Shown here in pieces: positions 11,491 to 29,470 of a stretch of DNA of 64,000 bases (within the stretch, counting starts at the first letter, position 1; every line of letters starts with the position of its first letter). The notes below the pieces were generated by a model that was given only the letters and a program-made list of their open reading frames with translations, ran no database searches and had not been told where the DNA came from. The DNA lies in the NCBI RefSeq assembly GCF_024298765.1, contig NZ_CP101210.1, one strand, 5' to 3'. The position numbers and the translations under genes are program-made. This stretch comes from Escherichia coli. GTDB taxonomy: Bacteria > Pseudomonadota > Gammaproteobacteria > Enterobacterales > Enterobacteriaceae.

Positions 11491-11731
11491 TGTAAAGCAT
11501 CCACAATAGAAGAAGGATGCCGCAGGTTTCATCAATATTACGCGATGATGAGAACCAGATGCGACGTTAGCCGGCAGGTCTTCGGGCTTGGAGGGGTATC
11601 TAAGATACTAAGAGATGATGACTTCCCACCGGATGGCAGTGTCCGCATAACGCAATCATCGCACCTTTCCTTACCGCTGCGCGTCAGCTCCAGATTCGCA
11701 CTGGATTCCCTATTAACTCACAGGACCGGCA
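11491..11731 (-). ncRNA. Adenosylcobalamin riboswitch (btuB 5' leader)
   Basis: Minus-strand sequence GCCGGTCCTGTGAGTTAATAGGGAATCCAGTGCGAATCTGGAGCTGACGCGCAGCGGTAAGGAAAGGTGCGATGATTGCGTTATGCGGACACTGCCATCCGGTGGGAAGTCATC... matches the well-studied btuB leader. The 5' end is approximate. Confidence 0.85.
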
Positions 11732-11858
11732 AGTGGATGCTACAGGTTGTAACAAGTTACTGTCCAGACGTAGCTCACAAATAGGAATTCATCAAGATCT
11801 GGACATCTGATGAGCAATCCCTACAATCGCCGCGTACTTTAATTTTTCAGGATACATC

Positions 11859-14005: not shown

Positions 14006-14339
14006 CACGATGTCTGAATCCTTGCCAAAAGTACTGCTGGCACTATACCAGAGAATGAACATACTGGATTGCTCCAGTATTGTGAATGAACGGTAACGCA
14101 ATAAAACATATTTACTGCAATTCTTTGGCCGGTTCTTTTACGTACAACGGAAACCTGCCGCTTAAACGGAGAGTATCGTCGATAAAAATCCAATAAAACG
14201 TTCAGGTCAAAAGTAAGAAACAGACAAAGCAAAGGCCGCTCACGATATAGCCAGATAAATGACGGGGATCAATTGGCTTACCCGCGATAAAATGTTATCA
14301 TTCTGTTGCTTTTATGTATAAGAACAGGTAAGCCCTACC

Positions 14340-15740
14340 ATGCCACATTCCTACGATTACGATGCCATAGTAATAGGTTCCGGCCCCGGCGGCGAAGGCG
14401 CTGCAATGGGCCTGGTTAAGCAAGGTGCGCGCGTCGCAGTTATCGAGCGTTATCAAAATGTTGGCGGCGGTTGCACCCACTGGGGCACCATCCCGTCGAA
14501 AGCTCTCCGTCACGCCGTCAGCCGCATTATAGAATTTAATCAAAACCCACTTTACAGCGACCATTCGCGACTGCTCCGCTCTTCTTTTGCCGATATCCTT
14601 AACCATGCCGATAACGTGATTAATCAACAAACGCGCATGCGTCAGGGATTTTACGAACGTAATCACTGTGAAATATTGCAGGGGAACGCTCGCTTTGTTG
14701 ACGAGCACACGCTGGCGCTGGATTGCCCGGACGGCAGCGTCGAGACACTAACCGCTGAAAAATTTGTTATTGCTTGCGGCTCTCGTCCATATCATCCAAC
14801 AGATGTTGATTTCACGCATCCACGCATTTACGACAGCGACTCAATTCTTAGCATGCACCACGAACCGCGCCATGTACTTATCTATGGTGCTGGAGTGATC
14901 GGCTGTGAATATGCGTCGATCTTCCGCGGTATGGATGTAAAAGTGGATCTGATCAACACCCGCGATCGCCTGCTGGCATTTCTCGATCAAGAGATGTCAG
15001 ATTCTCTCTCCTATCACTTCTGGAACAGTGGCGTAGTGATTCGTCACAACGAAGAGTACGAGAAGATCGAAGGCTGTGACGACGGTGTGATCATGCATTT
15101 GAAGTCGGGTAAAAAACTGAAAGCTGACTGCCTGCTCTATGCCAACGGTCGCACCGGTAATACCGATTCGCTGGCGTTACAGAACATTGGGCTGGAAACT
15201 GACAGCCGCGGACAGCTGAAGGTCAACAGCATGTATCAGACCGCACAGCCGCACGTTTACGCGGTGGGCGACGTGATTGGTTATCCGAGCCTGGCGTCGG
15301 CGGCCTATGACCAGGGGCGCATTGCCGCGCAGGCGCTGGTGAAAGGTGAAGCCACCGCACATCTGATTGAAGATATCCCTACCGGTATTTACACCATCCC
15401 GGAAATCAGCTCTGTGGGCAAAACCGAACAGCAGCTGACCGCGATGAAAGTGCCATATGAAGTGGGCCGCGCCCAGTTTAAACATCTGGCACGTGCACAA
15501 ATCGTCGGCATGAACGTGGGCACGCTGAAAATTTTGTTCCATCGGGAAACAAAAGAGATTCTGGGTATTCACTGCTTTGGCGAGCGCGCTGCCGAAATTA
15601 TTCATATCGGTCAGGCGATTATGGAACAGAAAGGTGGCGGCAACACTATTGAGTACTTCGTCAACACCACCTTTAACTACCCGACGATGGCGGAAGCCTA
15701 TCGGGTAGCTGCGCTAAATGGCTTAAACCGCCTGTTTTAA
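14340..15740 (+). CDS. sthA: Soluble pyridine nucleotide transhydrogenase (466 aa)
   Basis: Full-length ORF with FAD-binding GSGPGG motif ([24 protein letters not shown]...); 3' end overlaps the convergent oxyR 3' end by 18 bp. Confidence 0.95.
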
Positions 15741-16640
15741 CACTTTATCGAAATGGCCATCCATTCTTGCGCGGATGGCCTCTGCCAGCTGCTCATAGCG
15801 GCTGCGCAGCGGTGAGCCAGGACGATAAACCAGACCAATGGTACGGCGTGGTTCCGGCTTAATACACGGCAAATAAACAACCCCATCGCGTTTGCGCTCC
15901 GGCGGCACAGCCAGCGCAGGCAGTAAAGTGATCCCGCTACCTGCCGCCACCATGTTGCGCAGAGTTTCCAGGCTGGTCGCGCGGAAGTGTGTATCTTCAT
16001 CCGCCCCGGCTTCAAAACAGAAACCCATTGCCTGATCGCGCAAACAGTGACCGTCTTCCAGCATCAGCAGTTTTTCCCCTGCCAGATCGGCCATCGGTAC
16101 GCATTCGCGGTTCGCCCACGGATGGTCTTCATAGATAGCCAGCAACATTGGCTCATCAAACAACGGCACTTCAATGAATGCTTCGCTCTCTTTCACCAGC
16201 GCGAGGATCACGCAATCGAGTTTGCCGCTGTCCAGTTGCGCCAGTAACTGGTGGGTCTGTGCTTCATGCAGATACATTTCCAGCTTTGGAAAGGTCTGGT
16301 GCAGCATCGGGATAATATGCGGTAGCAGGTACGGTCCAACCGTGGGAATCAGACCAATATGCAGCGGTCCGGACATCGTCTCGCCCTGCTGGCTTGCCAT
16401 CTCTTTAAGGACTTTCACCTCACGCAGCACGGTACGCGCCTGATCCACCAGCAGCATTCCCGCCTGGGTGAATAACACTTTACGGCTGGTCCGCTCCAGC
16501 AACATCACACCCAACTCATCTTCCAGCTTACGAATTTGCCCGCTAAGCGTCGGCTGGCTAACGTGGCAGGAATCTGCCGCACGCCGAAAATGGCGGTGTT
16601 CGGCCAATGCCACCAGGTACTCAAGATCACGAATATTCAT
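15723..16640 (-). CDS. oxyR: LysR-family oxidative-stress regulator (305 aa)
   Basis: ORF 15723..16685; start set at [40 protein letters not shown]. Redox cysteines present (GHCLRDQA for Cys199; [10 protein letters not shown] for Cys208). Confidence 0.93.
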
Positions 16641-16735
16641 TATCCATCCTCCATTGCCACGATAGTTCGCGGCGATAGGTAGCATAGCAACGAACGATTA
16701 TCCCTATCAAGCATTCTGACTGATAATTGCTCACA
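16641..16735. promoter_or_regulatory. Divergent oxyR / oxyS promoter region with OxyR operator
   Basis: Intergenic segment between the oxyR start and the oxyS +1; contains ATAG-type repeats (GATAGG...CGATTATCCCTATCAAGC) and a -10-like TGATAAT at 16721-16727. Confidence 0.55.
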
Positions 16736-16848
16736 GAAACGGAGCGGCACCTCTTTTAACCCTTGAAGTCACTGCCCGTTTCGAGAGTTTCTCAACTCGA
16801 ATAACTAAAGCCAACGTGAACTTTTGCGGATCTCCAGGATCCGCTTTT
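16736..16848 (+). ncRNA. oxyS: OxyS small regulatory RNA
   Basis: GAAACGGAGCGGCACCTCTTTTAACCCTTGAAGTCACTGCCCGTTTCGAGAGTTTCTCAACTCGAATAACTAAAGCCAACGTGAACTTTTGCGGATCTCCAGGATCCGCTTTTTTTT matches OxyS, including the terminal hairpin GCGGATC-TCCAG-GATCCGC and U-run. Confidence 0.9.
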
Positions 16849-16891
16849 TTTTATTCTACAGGCCCACAGCAAGAGAGCCTGATAGTAACGG

Positions 16892-18175
16892 TTACTCAAT
16901 CCGATCTTTGACAATAAAGAAGTAACACAGCGCCCCGGTGAACGTCACACAGGCCGCGATAACCAGCGCCAGATTAAACGAGTGTGTGGTATCCACGACC
17001 CAACCGGTTACGATCGGAGCAAAGGAAGCAAAAACAAAACTGCCAAAGTTTTGAATCCCGGCGATGGAAGCCACTTTTGTTTCTGACACCATCACCTGCA
17101 CCAGCCCCCATGCAGATGTTCCCGCGAAATGCACGCAGAACAGCGCCATTGAGATAAACGCTACCGCCTGGGCTGGCGAGGAAGATTGCACGACCAGCAA
17201 CGTGCCTAATGCCGACATCATCAAACCGCAGACAATCGCCGTTTTACGCGTCTTCGCCAGGTCATAGCCTTTTTTCGCCAGCCGATCGACAACAATACCG
17301 TTAACCCACATCCCGACCGCCGCCGCGAGGAAAGGAATTGCCGCCACCCAACCGGTTTTCGCCAGACTGAAACCTTGTTCGGCCTGCAAATAACCGGGTA
17401 ACCACGCGATGTAGAGCCAACCGGTATAATTGACGCCAGAGAAACCTAAAATCATCCCCCAGGTTGTCCGATGCTTAAACAGCGCCAGCCACTCGCTAAA
17501 TTGTAACTGTGGACGCGGTTTAACCGGCGCGGAGAGATATGTCCGTTCTTCCTCGGTCAGGACAAACTGCGCCCGGTTGCGATACCACGCGTACCAACAG
17601 ATCCCAACCAGAATCCCTGCTACGCCGATGATGACAAACATCGTCCGCCAGCCCCATGCCAGTTGCATCAATACAAGAGCAGGAGGCGCGATAGCCTGAC
17701 CGATAACGGTAGATGAGTTAAAAATCCCCAGCGCCGTGCCGCGTTCTTTTTGCGCATACCAGTCGGTGATCGACTTTACTCCCGCAGGCATAAATGGCGC
17801 TTCGCCAATACCCAGACCGATACGCATTAAAATAAAGTGGCTAAAAGAATTAACCATTCCTGTTAATGCCTGCATTAATGACCAGAATATTAAGCCTGCG
17901 CCTAACACTATTCGTGGGCCAAAGCGGTCTAGCAAAATACCGGAAGGAAGTTGTGAAAAACCATAAGACAGAGAAAATGCAGAAAGCAAAACACCAAACT
18001 CGGTAGCGGATAATCCTAACTCGCCACGAATTGCTTCACCTGCCACGCTCAATGACGAACGGTCGAGAAAATTAACGATCCCCGCCATAAATAATAAAAC
18101 CAGGGTCACTGTCTGAATACGACGAATCCGTTGCGGTTTATTACCCGCAACACTGGTTGACACATCAACGTCCAT
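16892..18175 (-). CDS. MFS transporter, anion:cation symporter-like (hexuronate/aldonate/sugar-acid type), 427 aa; accessory relative to K-12
   Basis: 12-TM-type hydrophobic ORF with MFS signature region (GILLDRFGPRIVLGAGLIFWSL...RIGLGIGEAPFMPAG); resembles GudP/DgoT/ExuT-type sugar-acid permeases. Confidence 0.8.
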   Translation of the reverse strand: MDVDVSTSVAGNKPQRIRRIQTVTLVLLFMAGIVNFLDRSSLSVAGEAIRGELGLSATEFGVLLSAFSLSYGFSQLPSGILLDRFGPRIVLGAGLIFWSLMQALTGMVNSFSHFILMRIGLGIGEAPFMPAGVKSITDWYAQKERGTALGIFNSSTVIGQAIAPPALVLMQLAWGWRTMFVIIGVAGILVGICWYAWYRNRAQFVLTEEERTYLSAPVKPRPQLQFSEWLALFKHRTTWGMILGFSGVNYTGWLYIAWLPGYLQAEQGFSLAKTGWVAAIPFLAAAVGMWVNGIVVDRLAKKGYDLAKTRKTAIVCGLMMSALGTLLVVQSSSPAQAVAFISMALFCVHFAGTSAWGLVQVMVSETKVASIAGIQNFGSFVFASFAPIVTGWVVDTTHSFNLALVIAACVTFTGALCYFFIVKDRIE

Positions 18176-18241
18176 TTTTAGCTCCTTGAGCGGAATTAAT
18201 CGATTTGATGAATATTCAGAAAATAATTAAGCGAACCGCTA

Positions 18242-19456
18242 TTACCAGTTCCACAATGTGCCATCTTCCAGTCGTGCGACGGGGAGATACGCCGGGTCAT
18301 ACGGATATTTCGCCGCCAGTTTCTCATCGAAAGAAATACCCAGCCCCGGTTCATCGCCTGGGTGCATATAACCTTCATCGAAGCGCCAGCTATGCGGGAA
18401 GACTTCAAGCATTTGTTCGGAATAGCCCATGTACTCCTGAACGCCAAAGTTTGGCACCCAGAGGTCAAAATGCAGCGCCGCCGCATGGCAAACAGGCGAT
18501 AAATCTGAAGGGCCATGCGAACCGGTACGTACCTGATAAAGCGATGCAAAATCGGCAATCCGTCGCATCCCGGTAATGCCGCCTGCATGGGTAATCGTCG
18601 TGCGAATATAGTCAATCAGCTGCTCTTCGATTAACTGCTTGCAGTCCCAGATACTGTTAAACACTTCACCGACCGCAATCGGCGTCACGGTATGCTGACG
18701 AATCAGACGAAAACATTCCTGATTCTCGGCAGGCGTCGGATCTTCCATCCAGAACAGGCGGTAATCTTCAATGCTCTTCCCAAAGCGCGCCGCTTCGATG
18801 GGGGTCAGGCGATGGTGCATGTCATGCAACAGATGTTCGTTAAAACCGAACTTATTACGCACCGCTTCAAATAACTTCGGCGTAAAATCGAGATACTTTT
18901 CTGAAGACCACAACTGCTCTTCTGGCCACAGGCCTTTGGTTGCTGGTTCATACGCCAGTCCTTTGCCCTTCGCCAGACCATAGGTGGTTTGCATACCCGG
19001 TACACCACACTGCACACGAATCGCCTTAAAGCCCATCTGCTGGTGCTTTGCATAGTCTTCAAGGACTTCATCAATCGTACGCCCGGTGGTGTGGCAATAA
19101 ACCATAACGCCTTCACGAGAAGCACCACCAAGCAGTTGATACAATGGCATATTTGCCGCTTTTGCTTTGATATCCCACAACGCCATATCAATGGCAGAAA
19201 TGGCTGACATCGTGACGGGGCCACGTCGCCAGTAAGCACCTTTATAAAAGAATTGCCAGATATCTTCGATACGGCTGGCATCGCGGCCAATTAGTTGTGG
19301 ACAAAGATGATCTTTCAGATAAGAAGCGACCGACAATTCGCGACCATTTAACGTGGCATCTCCTAATCCACAAAGTCCGCTTGCAGTGGTTATTTTAAGC
19401 GTAACGAAATTACGCCCTGGGCAAGTAACAAAAACATCTGCAGCAATAATTTTCAT
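18242..19456 (-). CDS. Enolase-superfamily dehydratase, ManD/RspA-like (about 404 aa); accessory relative to K-12
   Basis: ORF 18242..19516; start set at ATG 19454-19456 ([24 protein letters not shown]...) with an AGGAG RBS about 7 nt upstream. TIM-barrel region resembles mandelate racemase / D-mannonate dehydratase family proteins such as E. coli RspA. Confidence 0.8.
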
Positions 19457-19860
19457 TATTGCAATCTCCTGTGTTGTAAATAGACGTTTCAAACTTAATT
19501 TTGCGCCTACTACCATACAAGAGAGAAAGAGCGATTATTCAACCATGATCACATTAAAAATAAAAATTTCTACCGAGGAGAAAAAACACCCTCAAAAACC
19601 ACCTGAATAATTAGCTATCATCGTTAAAACAACACGTTAAATAATCACATAACAAACTCCATTAATCATTAAAAATGAACACAGCAATAGAAATGAATTA
19701 TATTCAATTAATTAAAGTATGTATTGGCTGATGTATTGAAAATATAATTTTTATGGGGAGAGTGAAGGTAAAGAAGACGCAAGAATAAAAAGGAATGTGA
19801 CAAATAATGGTTCTGGTTGGGCGTTAAATTTAAGGTCACCAGAATACTGACAAATTTCTG

Positions 19861-19941
19861 CCTGATGCGGCGTAAACGCCTTATCCGCCTACGAAGTGTC
19901 GCACTTTGTAGGCGTGGTAAGCTCCCCATTTTCAGGGGAGC
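19861..19941. repeat. REP-like palindromic element plus a perfect hairpin just downstream of argH
   Basis: GCCTGATGCGGCGTAAACGCCTTATCCGCCTAC is REP-like; GCTCCCC-ATTTTCA-GGGGAGC at 19921-19941 is a perfect 7-bp inverted repeat. Confidence 0.6.
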
Positions 19942-19953
19942 AATATAAACAAA

Positions 19954-21327
19954 CTACTCTAACCGAGCTTGCGCAAAAGCAATCGCCTGCGCCACCTGCT
20001 GCGGTGAGACGCCGCCTTTTGCAGCACGCTTGTCGAGGCACGATTGCAGCGACAGAATCGGATAGACATCTTCGCCAATCACCTGGCTGAATTTCTGCAA
20101 CTCACTGAGCGGCAGATCTTCCAACGCTTTGCCCTGACGAATGGCTTCCACCACAGCTTCACCCACAATATGGTGCGCCTCGCGGAACGGTACGCCTTTC
20201 GCCACCAGATAATCCGCCAGTTCAGTAGCGTTGGCGTAACCCTGCTGCGCCGCTTCCTGGCAACGCGGACGTTTCACCTGAATGCCGTCCAGCACCAGCG
20301 CCGCCATATGCAGGCAGTCCAGCCAGGTATCGAGCGCGTCGAACAGACCTTCTTTGTCTTCCTGCATATCTTTGTTGTAAGCCAGCGGCAAACCTTTCAG
20401 CGTCATCATCATGCCGGTTAACGCCCCCTGCACCCGACCGCATTTACCGCGAATCAGCTCCAGCGCATCCGGGTTTTTCTTCTGCGGCATTAATGATGAA
20501 CCGGAAGTCACACGGTCAGAAAGCTCCACAAACCCCGCTTCGCCGGTGTTAAAGAAAATCAGATCTTCAGCAAAACGCGACAGATGCACCATGCCGATAG
20601 CGGCAGCAGAAAGCAGTTCCAACACATGGTCACGGTCAGAAACGCTGTCGAGACTGTTACGGGTCGCCGAAGCAAAGCCCAGCCAGCCTGCTAACTGTTC
20701 ACGGTCGATTTCATAGGCCGTTCCTGCCAGTGCGCCACAGCCTAGCGGGCTGACATCCAGACGCTTAAGCGCGTCCTGCAAACGGCTTTCATCACGCGCC
20801 AGCATCTCAACGTAGGCCAGGCACCAGTGAGCGAACGTCACCGGCTGGGCGCGTTGCAGGTGAGTGTAACCCGGCATCACCGCGTCCTGATTGTTCTGCG
20901 CGGTCTCGACCAGAGCGGATTGTAACTGCCGGTTAGCCGTCAGCAACTCGCTAACGGTATCTTTGCACCACAGTTTCAGGTCAGTTGCTACCTGATCATT
21001 ACGGCTACGCCCGGTATGCAGTTTTTTGCCTAACTGACCCACTTTGTCGATCAGTTTGCCTTCCACCCAGCTATGGATATCTTCGGCGTCGCTTTCAAGG
21101 ATTTGTTGTGGCCTGGCGCGAACATCTTCCAGCAGCACGTTCAGCGCCTCTTCCAGTTGCGCCTGCTCTTCTGCGGTTAACACGCCGACCGTTACCAGGG
21201 CTTTGGACCAGGCCACAGAGCCAACAATATCCTGCTCCGCCAGACGGTAATCAAAGCGCAGTGAGTCGTTGAATTGTTTGAACCGTTGATCTGCTGCCTG
21301 GGTAAAACGCCCGCCCCAAAGTGCCAT
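19954..21327 (-). CDS. argH: Argininosuccinate lyase (457 aa)
   Basis: Full-length [37 protein letters not shown]...; fumarate-lyase signature [12 protein letters not shown]. Confidence 0.95.

Positions 21328-29354: not shown

Positions 29355-29470
<116 letters not shown>

Follow-up and report, generated by a model that had tools for sequence, protein, structure and literature searches.

Introduction

The closest described pathway to the locus analyzed here is the degradation of L-gulonate through D-fructuronate and D-mannonate to KDG, which has been established experimentally in H. influenzae (PMC5788505). Its enzymes are GulD/RspB, UxuB/YdfI, UxuA/ManD, KdgK and KdgA/Eda, and the dehydration step predicted below, as well as the enzymes downstream of it, match this scheme (PMC5788505). 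UxuA and ManD are unrelated proteins, ManD being an enolase-superfamily analogue, and in contrast to the UxuA-dependent pathway our two-gene module supplies uptake and dehydration only. The L-gulonate pathway is said to have been proposed also, by Wichelecki and co-workers in 2014, for the rsp genes of E. coli CFT073, where it would be cryptic; RspA-type ManDs were reported by these authors in 2014 to be of low efficiency and without a physiological role that could be demonstrated. On the uptake side, members of the ACS family (DgoT, LgoT, ExuT, GarP, GudP) are proton-coupled sugar-acid importers (2026 preprint).

In E. coli, rspA lies at ynfA-rspA-rspB, followed by the gene for the Zn-dependent dehydrogenase RspB. 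The locus analyzed here is a second copy, situated between argH and oxyS, in which manD is followed by a transporter gene. It lies in a 64-kb stretch of E. coli DNA, hereafter the window, to which all coordinates refer. The module is already known insofar as RefSeq annotates the exact proteins, as 'D-mannonate dehydratase ManD' (manD, for the orthologue WP_000691039.1) and as 'MFS transporter' (WP_000382186.1, in Nissle and CFT073), and both families are well characterized. In main texts searched by gene name with phylogroup and by the candidate CFT073 locus tags c4919-c4921, of which c4919 is ArgH, we found no mention of the two genes. On balance, we lean towards reading the module as a chromosomal two-gene operon, manD then the MFS gene, that is a second, anciently diverged partial copy of the rsp sugar-acid locus and that would serve hexonate uptake and dehydration under an rspA-type promoter.

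Results

Borders and gene content

Alignment with K-12 delimits a segment of ~3.1 kb (16853-19954) that separates the oxyS terminator from the argH stop codon. K-12 homology ends at 16852, directly 3' of the T-run of the oxyS terminator, and picks up again at ~19955, ~13 nt beyond the argH stop. These borders lie within 2 nt of those given in a preliminary description of this DNA (16855-19953), which had also stated correctly that argH adjoins oxyS/oxyR in K-12 with no such module between them. At this site the window holds ~3102 bases, compared with 55 unrelated bases in K-12. The 55-bp filler includes K-12's own argH terminator, and local alignment on both strands found no convincing remnant of the module in it beyond ~13 nt beside the argH stop. 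The K-12 allele may be either a secondary deletion or a primordial empty site that was retained. The arrangement is as follows:

15723-16640, minus strand: oxyR
16736-16845, plus strand: oxyS sRNA gene (Rfam RF00035, 139.5 bits), the left boundary, outside the module
16892-18175, minus strand: MFS transporter gene encoding 427 aa, second in the operon (Pfam MFS_1, NCBIfam, DgoT alignment)
18176-18241, minus strand: manD-MFS intergenic spacer, 66 nt, with the transporter Shine-Dalgarno AAGGAG inside
18242-19456, minus strand: manD, first in the operon, encoding a 404-aa enolase-superfamily dehydratase of the ManD/RspA subgroup (NCBIfam, Pfam and PDB matches)
19466-19470, minus strand: manD Shine-Dalgarno AGGAG, read from the sequence
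19561-19857, minus strand: AT-rich spacer specific to the argH-linked copy, containing the conserved block TTAACGTGTTGTTTTAACGAT
19860-19918, plus strand: REP element, fitting the REP consensus
19921-19941, minus strand: argH terminator-like hairpin GCTCCCC-TGAAAAT-GGGGAGC (predicted fold)
19954-21327, minus strand: argH

The MFS gene and oxyS are convergent. Two ORFs in the segment, and no others, have database support; ORFs and annotation alike show no regulator, kinase or aldolase gene there, in keeping with the preliminary description, which had seen no regulator or downstream enzyme beside the two genes. An Rfam scan of the segment gave no match except oxyS at its edge. The intergenic region upstream of manD (19457-19953) has a G+C content of 35%, and its AT-rich spacer is homologous over ~400 nt in E. 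whittamii, Escherichia sp. E1V33 and Citrobacter sp. R56. The argH terminator of K-12 differs from the hairpin in the window, in a comparison that also took in Nissle, E. whittamii and Citrobacter. Further REP copies occur in the window at 29371, 29451 and 40103.

The dehydratase

We placed the manD start at MKIIAAD, the RefSeq 404-aa start; the ORF lister runs on to 19516. The protein scores 731.5 bits over its full length (1-404) against the NCBIfam equivalog NF043051 (cutoff 550) and 806 bits against NF011654, and it has the two-domain architecture of the enolase superfamily (MR_MLE_N capping domain, PF02746, E 1.5e-33; MR_MLE_C barrel, PF13378, E 1.3e-45). In the PDB it matches 4IL2, RspA of E. 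coli CFT073 (E 5e-270), a crystal structure of 91% identity. The equivalog cutoff, the Pfam domains and 4IL2 together bear out the ManD/RspA assignment that had been made from the letters alone.

The active site is complete: R147, Y159, D212, H214, E238 and E264 are all kept. The Mg2+-ligand carboxylates are D212 (LLHDMHH), E238 (WMEDP) and E264 (AVGEVF), the same as in 4IL2 and 4E4F. In the N. aromaticivorans enzyme the ligands are reportedly Asp210, Glu236 and Glu262, at the ends of barrel strands 3-5 (numbering of Rakus et al. 2007); we related the two numberings through the motifs and an offset of +2 rather than through a direct alignment to 2QJJ. The general-base dyad Tyr159-Arg147 is present as Y159 and R147, and the equivalent of the general acid His212 is H214. 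Thus the loss of catalytic residues that would have marked a pseudoenzyme is not seen in the sequence.

Compared with E. coli RspA, ManD has 91.6% amino acid identity over 404 aa with zero indels, and 34 differences, none of them at R147, Y159 or H214. At the nucleotide level manD and rspA are 80.2% identical; this identity of 80%, with dS ~2, indicates an ancient divergence, and CFT073 carries both RspA and the argH-linked ManD. The argH-linked ManDs form a separate clade with 10 fixed substitutions, all conservative and none at a catalytic residue. Two of them, Q156 and L161, lie on either side of the general base Y159 within the 150-180s loop.

The transporter

The second gene encodes a protein that matches Pfam MFS_1 (E 5e-53) and whose best NCBIfam family, by a wide margin, is the TIGR00893 'D-galactonate transporter' subfamily. 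Because its score of 276.6 bits falls below the TIGR00893 cutoff of 395, we file it as ACS-like and not as a member of that subfamily. Among solved structures, DgoT of E. coli is the nearest (6E9N, E 2e-57), and D38, R39 and E125 align with DgoT D46, R47 and E133; in DgoT, Asp46 and Glu133 serve proton coupling and Arg47 carboxylate binding (PMC6532931). The MFS fold is common to the transporter and DgoT (6E9N/6E9O), with an alignment spanning residues 13-424 (412 residues), but DgoT is only a distant paralogue (198 bits), and the transporter is absent from the five K-12 ACS transporters characterized in the 2026 preprint. The earlier assignment to a sugar-acid type of MFS permease therefore stands, and can be narrowed to the ACS (SLC17-like) family with DgoT as closest solved relative.

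Origin from the rsp locus

The rsp locus of 15 genomes, spanning nine or more other enterobacterial genera, contains an orthologous transporter (82-89% amino acid identity). The order there is rspA-MFS-rspB or MFS-rspA-rspB, followed by ydfJ-ydfI-ydfH-ydfG-dcp, and the rsp-linked transporters enclose the argH-linked clade, which is nested among them. Since the transporter sits within the rspA-rspB operon of other Enterobacteriaceae, the argH-linked pair derives from the rsp locus. Close counterparts are the rspA-MFS-rspB operons of Lelliottia, Siccibacter, Kluyvera and Enterobacter sp. kpr-6, which match the pair in order and orientation, with 82-88% amino acid identity for the transporter, 93-94% for ManD and the same promoter core. 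Those operons embed the pair among rspB, ydfJ, ydfI, ydfH, ydfG and dcp, whereas the pair in the window is isolated from them.

Promoter and operator

Upstream of manD we found a promoter of the rspA type:

19492-19553, minus strand: rspA-type promoter, by column-for-column alignment with rspA promoters
19553-19547, minus strand: TGTGATC motif
19520-19515, minus strand: -35-like element TTGTAT
19509-19521, minus strand: RspR-operator core CTTGTATGGTAGT, overlapping the -35 element
19497-19492, minus strand: -10-like element TAAGTT

This region aligns with the rspA promoters of E. coli, Kluyvera, Raoultella and Cedecea, and the spacings match among rspA promoters (33 nt from TGTGATC to TTGTAT, and 64-68 nt to the ATG). 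The architecture is homologous to that of E. coli rspAB, including an identical 14-nt core, TTGTATGGTAGTAG, at an equal distance from the ATG, and the mapped E. coli rspA transcription start sets TTGTAT at -35 (PMC8249747). The predicted hexamers are weak, and a generic sigma-70 scan called no minus-strand promoter upstream of manD; we base the assignment on homology to rspA, whose promoter has been mapped, and not on consensus strength.

The core CTTGTATGGTAGT has one exact match in the 64-kb window, at the homologous position, compared with 0.03 expected by chance. In 13 other genomes it occurs upstream of rspA, of transporters with their own promoter, of ydfI and, once, of ydfH, and it falls within the 31-bp RspR footprint (PMC8249747). 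In the published RspR box, ATACnnGTAT, the left half is replaced by TCTC in the window, where the sequence reads TCTCTTGTAT, and the exact box ATACNNGTAT has no match in the whole window. We considered, from the missing ATACNNGTAT, that the operator had been lost, and dropped this idea: in other genera, too, the promoters of the MFS gene and ydfI have a left flank other than ATAC (CTTC, ATTC or GTTC) and keep CTTGTATGGTAGT. The manD promoter is probably under repression by RspR (YdfH), whose gene lies elsewhere, although the TCTC half means that this control is not assured; it is also probably cAMP-CRP dependent. The absence of a regulator noted earlier thus holds for the segment itself; the rspA-type promoter and CTTGTATGGTAGT point to RspR/YdfH as a likely regulator located elsewhere.

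The 66-nt spacer between manD and the transporter gene is 100% identical in Nissle. It shows neither a promoter core nor a terminator, so the two genes are probably co-transcribed, and it has no CTTGTATGGTAGT, in contrast to genera whose transporter has its own promoter.

Distribution, age and selection

The whole segment is present at the argH-oxyS site in 1860 of 5426 complete E. coli genomes, and the transporter gene in 1869. Carriers include CFT073, Nissle 1917, UM146 and the ATCC 25922 lineage, while K-12 and O157:H7 lack the module. At least two sequence classes, ≥99% and ~97-97.7% identical, can be told apart among carriers sampled by strain name, and the distribution is not confined to one E. 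coli lineage. In some carriers the module contains an IS1 insertion or has lost an internal stretch.

The site is also occupied in E. whittamii, Escherichia sp. E1V33 and Escherichia sp. MOD1-EC7003. Between the window and E. whittamii, dS is 0.37 for manD and 0.28 for the MFS gene, compared with 0.31 for both argH and oxyR, and across the other Escherichia the nucleotide identity and dS of the module match those of the argH, oxyR and sthA flanks; the module is neither younger than its surroundings nor discordant with them. Citrobacter sp. R56 has a decayed locus at the equivalent site, where manD is down to its two ends and the spacer is homologous. The module is therefore no recent island but a presence/absence polymorphism of long standing, carried by about a third of E. 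coli. The description of this segment as an insertion was right in that K-12 is without the genes, but a recent acquisition does not follow from it.

Both genes have dN/dS values of 0.01-0.03 in three Escherichia species (0.012-0.026 for ManD and 0.010-0.026 for the transporter), at dS ~0.17-0.37, indicating long-term purifying selection on both proteins. In addition, the promoter/operator core is kept base for base. The absence of the module from about two thirds of E. coli, together with the decayed manD of Citrobacter sp. R56, shows that it is dispensable.

Discussion

The preliminary description took the pair for an uptake-plus-dehydration module acting on an acid sugar it did not name, and expected reliance on enzymes encoded elsewhere. 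Our reading keeps the type of module and that reliance, and the rsp link suggests a likely substrate. In the mechanism we propose, transcription would start at the rspA-type promoter, by our prediction ~30 nt upstream of the manD ATG, with the promoter probably RspR-repressed and probably cAMP-CRP dependent, and the transporter would take up D-mannonate, or L-gulonate, by proton coupling. L-gulonate would be converted to D-mannonate by RspB and YdfI/UxuB, ManD would dehydrate D-mannonate (possibly also D-gluconate) to 2-keto-3-deoxy-D-gluconate, and the core enzymes KdgK and Eda would pass this product into central metabolism. RspB, YdfI/UxuB, KdgK and Eda are all identifiable and encoded outside the segment. 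We infer that the transporter imports a C6 aldonate by proton coupling, and the association with rspA and rspB in other genera suggests D-mannonate or L-gulonate as the likeliest candidates.

It is rather unlikely that the genes, intact as they are, are cryptic, with a low-efficiency ManD that has no catabolic role and is a leftover, or a reservoir for new function, now being lost from E. coli. Such a history would agree with the two thirds of complete E. coli genomes that lack the module, with the damaged copies in some carriers and with the remaining two ends of manD in Citrobacter sp. R56. Native rspAB is already present in 4909 of the 5426 genomes, as is UxuA in these E. coli, and Wichelecki and co-workers reportedly found no physiological role for low-efficiency ManDs. 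The low dN/dS of both genes in three Escherichia species and the unchanged promoter/operator core argue against decay. We regard as similarly unlikely a mechanism of the same kind acting on another acid sugar, be it D-gluconate, L-idonate-derived gluconate or an uncharacterized hexonate or heptonate. Members of the ManD subgroup differ in their specificity for mannonate and gluconate, the argH-linked clade has its 10 fixed substitutions with Q156 and L161 beside Y159, and the transporter lies under the D-galactonate-subfamily cutoff; however, the substitutions are conservative and leave the catalytic residues untouched, ManD lies well over its equivalog cutoff, and elsewhere the transporter shares an operon with ordinary rspA and rspB.

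We consider it quite improbable that the module is a recently acquired genomic islet, transferred horizontally and specific to certain pathogenic E. coli lineages. Its absence from K-12 and O157:H7, its patchiness within E. coli, the G+C content of the spacer and a GC3 of 0.50-0.54 compared with 0.61 in the flanks (overall GC is near-normal) would be expected of one. On the other hand, the borders of the segment show no integrase, transposase, tRNA/att site, direct repeats or target-site duplication, we found no donor outside the argH-linked group closer than ~89% amino acid identity, three other Escherichia hold the site with flank-like identity and dS, and the orthologous decayed locus of Citrobacter sp. 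R56 has a homologous spacer. Least probable of all, and very improbable in our judgment, is a role in signaling, in which the enzyme would modulate RpoS by breaking down a starvation signal, for example homoserine lactone, instead of serving carbon catabolism. Degradation of a starvation signal is said to have been the original proposal for RspA, by Huisman and Kolter in 1994. Only the historical rsp phenotype, a lowering of RpoS upon rspAB overexpression, speaks for it (PMC8249747; bioRxiv paper). The active-site residues are nevertheless of the acid-sugar dehydratase type, and the partner gene is a sugar-acid symporter, accompanied in other genera by sugar-acid dehydrogenases.

A bolder extension of the hexonate-operon reading is possible but doubtful, namely that the operon is a second, so far unrecognized RspR target that enables hexonate import and a use of hexonates that K-12 cannot achieve efficiently. 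If so, carriers would have a real, selectable ability to take up and burn a hexonate of host or dietary origin (D-mannonate, L-gulonate or another acid related to them), and the long-puzzling low-efficiency ManDs of the RspA type would gain a physiological role. Genomic SELEX for RspR was done with DNA of K-12, which lacks the module (PMC8249747), and the 'single-target' label that RspR received from K-12 DNA probably fails for strains with a second rspA-type promoter. The presence of two ManD paralogues in CFT073, Nissle and other strains should be considered when rspA knock-outs, or L-gulonate and D-mannonate phenotypes, are read. For the family at large, the association with the rsp operon across Enterobacteriaceae provides a concrete substrate hypothesis for an uncharacterized ACS-family transporter.

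The segment between oxyS and argH

To define the borders of the segment, we aligned the window with the K-12 genome. Homology stops at 16852, just past the T-run of the oxyS terminator, and returns ∼13 nt past the argH stop codon. The oxyS-argH gap comprises ∼3102 bases in the window versus 55 unrelated bases in K-12, which are K-12's own argH terminator. The features concerned are:

15723-16640, -, oxyR (ORF list)
16736-16845, +, oxyS (Rfam scan, 139.5 bits)
16892-18175, -, MFS transporter ORF, 427 aa (ORF list)
18242-19456, -, enolase-superfamily ORF (manD), 404 aa (ORF list)
19954-21327, -, argH (ORF list)

The ORF list, the Rfam scan and the alignment thus confirm the two-gene segment that the preliminary description had placed at 16855-19953; the alignment also bears out those coordinates and the K-12 gene order given there, in which manD and the MFS gene are missing. 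The observation therefore holds, while its interpretation is supported only in part. Because no direct repeats were found at the borders in the window/K-12 alignment, the difference is a replacement-type indel. The argH end itself differs among alleles: the last codon and stop (19954-19959) read ...RLE-TAG in the window, ...RLE-TAA in Escherichia sp. E1V33, and ...RLG-TAA in K-12, Nissle, E. whittamii and Citrobacter R56, and thus junction variation extends into the last argH codon.

The MFS gene shows no obvious intrinsic terminator on its 3' side (16815-16895, -). This gene is convergent with oxyS, and what lies downstream is only the oxyS terminator hairpin read in reverse, without a U-tract on that strand. 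A transcript running past the MFS gene would cover oxyS in antisense and oxyR in sense. A proper terminator stands at this position in K-12, where it belongs to argH. Elsewhere in the window, the cobalamin riboswitch of the btuB leader (RF00174, 87.8 bits; 11556-11745, -) is an expected, ordinary feature.

Distribution in E. coli

A megablast search of 5426 complete E. coli genomes with window 16600-20100, the pangenome comparison proposed in the preliminary description, showed the segment to be common: it is complete at the same site in 1860 genomes, and 1869 carry the transporter gene when that gene alone is searched. The empty allele is found in K-12, B-derived strains and O157:H7. Carriers split into at least two sequence classes, one with ≥99% identity (553 genomes) and one with ∼97-97.7%; the distribution is therefore patchy, not that of one clone. 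The transporter gene of UM146 is 100% identical to the window's. In Nissle 1917 and CFT073, RefSeq names the pair 'manD: D-mannonate dehydratase ManD' and 'MFS transporter'.

Mobile elements strike both ManD loci in some strains. Strain HCM-28C-2 (NZ_AP038246.1), otherwise 100% identical to the window, has an IS1 inside or beside the manD module; IS1 also lies within rspB in other E. coli strains, and in O157:H7 RIMD 0509939 rspA is reduced to an 86-bp remnant adjoining a site-specific integrase. A further presence/absence polymorphism lies only ∼2.5 kb from the module: the sthA-fabR interval of CFT073 and Nissle 1917 (fetched loci L001, 1-1411, and L030, 35897-38422) holds two extra genes, encoding an M20 aminoacylase family protein and a citrate-proton symporter, which are absent from K-12 and from the window (fabR-sthA intergenic, 14102-14339). 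Since the window has manD-MFS without this pair, the two polymorphisms are not linked.

The dehydratase and the transporter

ManD scores 731.5 bits against the NCBIfam ManD equivalog (cutoff 550), contains the MR_MLE_N and MR_MLE_C domains, and aligns end to end with crystal structure 4IL2, the RspA of E. coli CFT073 (E 5e-270). All subgroup-defining residues are present, with positions assigned after the N. aromaticivorans enzyme: the general-base dyad R147/Y159, the general acid H214, and the metal ligands D212, E238 and E264. The 34 positions at which ManD differs from RspA include no catalytic residue or metal ligand, so that ManD is, judged by its sequence, not a pseudoenzyme, the possibility raised in the preliminary description.

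ManD shares 91.6% protein identity with native E. coli RspA, with only 80.2% identity at the DNA level (dS ∼2, saturated). Native rspAB occurs in 4909 of the 5426 genomes, making the argH-linked protein a second ManD in most carriers; CFT073, for example, holds both. The argH-linked ManDs form their own clade, with 10 fixed, conservative substitutions.

The transporter is an MFS_1 protein and scores best against TIGR00893, the ACS-type 'D-galactonate transporter' subfamily (276.6 bits, under the 395 cutoff). Its nearest solved structure is DgoT (E 2e-57), in which Asp46 and Glu133 are essential for proton coupling and Arg47 for binding the substrate carboxylate (PMC6532931); all three are kept, as D38, E125 and R39. 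Those E. coli ACS members that have been characterised import sugar acids by proton coupling.

Origin and age of the locus

Transporter orthologues with 82-89% amino acid identity occur in Raoultella, Cedecea, Kluyvera, Klebsiella, Pluralibacter, Atlantibacter, Lelliottia, Siccibacter and Enterobacter, and 15/15 genomes of these genera carry the gene within the rsp locus. Lelliottia and Siccibacter have the arrangement ynfA-rspA-MFS-rspB-ydfJ-ydfI-usp-ydfH-ydfG-dcp, and Raoultella, Pluralibacter and others ynfA-MFS-rspA-rspB-...; in Kluyvera and Enterobacter sp. kpr-6 the MFS gene directly follows rspA, as in the window. No rsp marker genes were found near two more distant homologues, those of Shimwellia and Rouxiella, and the native rsp locus of E. 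coli has no such transporter. The argH-linked transporters are one clade in a neighbour-joining tree, nested among the rsp-linked ones. Taken with the rsp context and the separate ManD clade, this shows that the module derives from an rsp locus, as a copied rspA-MFS pair set beside argH.

Could the segment be a recent island? We reject this reading: the order argH-manD-MFS-oxyS-oxyR recurs in E. whittamii, Escherichia sp. E1V33 and Escherichia sp. MOD1-EC7003, and the G+C content of the genes (50-51%; spacer, 35%) is near the window average. Divergence of the module tracks that of its flanks: between the window and E. whittamii, nucleotide identity is 93.7% for MFS, 93.2% for manD and 93.1-93.6% for sthA, oxyR and argH, with dS of 0.28 and 0.37 for MFS and manD and 0.31 for both argH and oxyR. 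dN/dS is 0.010-0.026 for both genes, which shows purifying selection. At the same site, Citrobacter sp. R56 has a homologous AT-rich spacer, the same promoter and an intact transporter (92% amino acid identity); of its manD (L025, 7695-7884) only the first ∼30 and last ∼14 codons are left. With transporter and promoter core intact, the transporter has been retained there without its dehydratase. The shared site, flank-like divergence, low dN/dS and R56 remnant therefore make the locus old: it is vertically inherited within Escherichia, kept by selection in the genomes that have it, and has been lost or replaced repeatedly.

Promoter and putative RspR operator

The promoter came along with the module: the 110 nt upstream of manD align with rspA promoters from four genera. 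Shared elements are a TGTGATC motif and, 33 nt on, TTGTATGGTAGTAG, which in the manD promoter equals that of E. coli rspA over 14 nt; a -10-like hexamer, TAAGTT, follows 17 nt past TTGTAT, whose start is 64 nt from the manD ATG. The E. coli rspA transcription start has been mapped 30 nt upstream of the ATG (Shimada et al., PMC8249747), so that TTGTAT falls at -35 and the TGTGA motif close to -61, where a class I CRP site would lie, making it a candidate CRP site.

At E. coli rspA, which is derepressed in an rspR mutant, the 31-bp footprint of RspR (YdfH) is centred on ATACnnGTAT (PMC8249747). The window has TCTCTTGTAT, so the published palindrome is incomplete there. A scan across all fetched loci puts this in another light. 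The recurrent motif is CTTGTATGGTAGT: it sits upstream of rspA, of ydfI, of the transporter where that has its own promoter, and once of ydfH, and the left flank at MFS and ydfI promoters is CTTC, ATTC or GTTC, not ATAC. The 64-kb window contains a single copy of this core, in the homologous place (0.03 expected by chance). In other genera the transporter thus falls within the putative RspR regulon, and the window operon is probably under RspR control, which SELEX could not reveal because it used K-12.

The core CTTGTATGGTAG also lies upstream of ydfI, a gene of the mannitol-dehydrogenase family (fetched loci L014, 14533; L019, 13193; L020, 11820), and in one genome upstream of the regulator gene ydfH (L012, 10064). 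The RspR regulon outside K-12 therefore looks multi-operon rather than confined to a single target. Within the AT-rich spacer, the block TTAACGTGTTGTTTTAACGAT (∼19620-19640, -) is near-invariant in E. coli, E. whittamii and Escherichia sp. E1V33 and can still be recognised in Citrobacter sp. R56, amid a spacer that otherwise diverges; it matched no known motif and may be a binding site.

Proposed function

The layout is operon-like: the 66-nt manD-MFS spacer includes a Shine-Dalgarno sequence and lacks a promoter core of its own. We propose that the transporter would import a C6 aldonate together with protons, that ManD would turn D-mannonate into 2-keto-3-deoxy-D-gluconate, and that KdgK and Eda, encoded elsewhere, would complete its breakdown. 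Should the imported acid be L-gulonate, it could first be turned into D-mannonate via D-fructuronate by RspB and YdfI/UxuB, whose genes likewise lie elsewhere. Wichelecki et al. reportedly proposed an L-gulonate route for the CFT073 rsp genes in 2014. In H. influenzae, the L-gulonate to D-fructuronate to D-mannonate route has been shown experimentally (PMC5788505). The main rival to such a catabolic role is a cryptic module with a low-efficiency enzyme that is often lost; the very low dN/dS speaks against a mere relic.

The manD-MFS pair is an ordinary, widespread and already annotated accessory operon of known families; what the present analysis adds is its origin in the rsp locus, its probable control by RspR, and its age.
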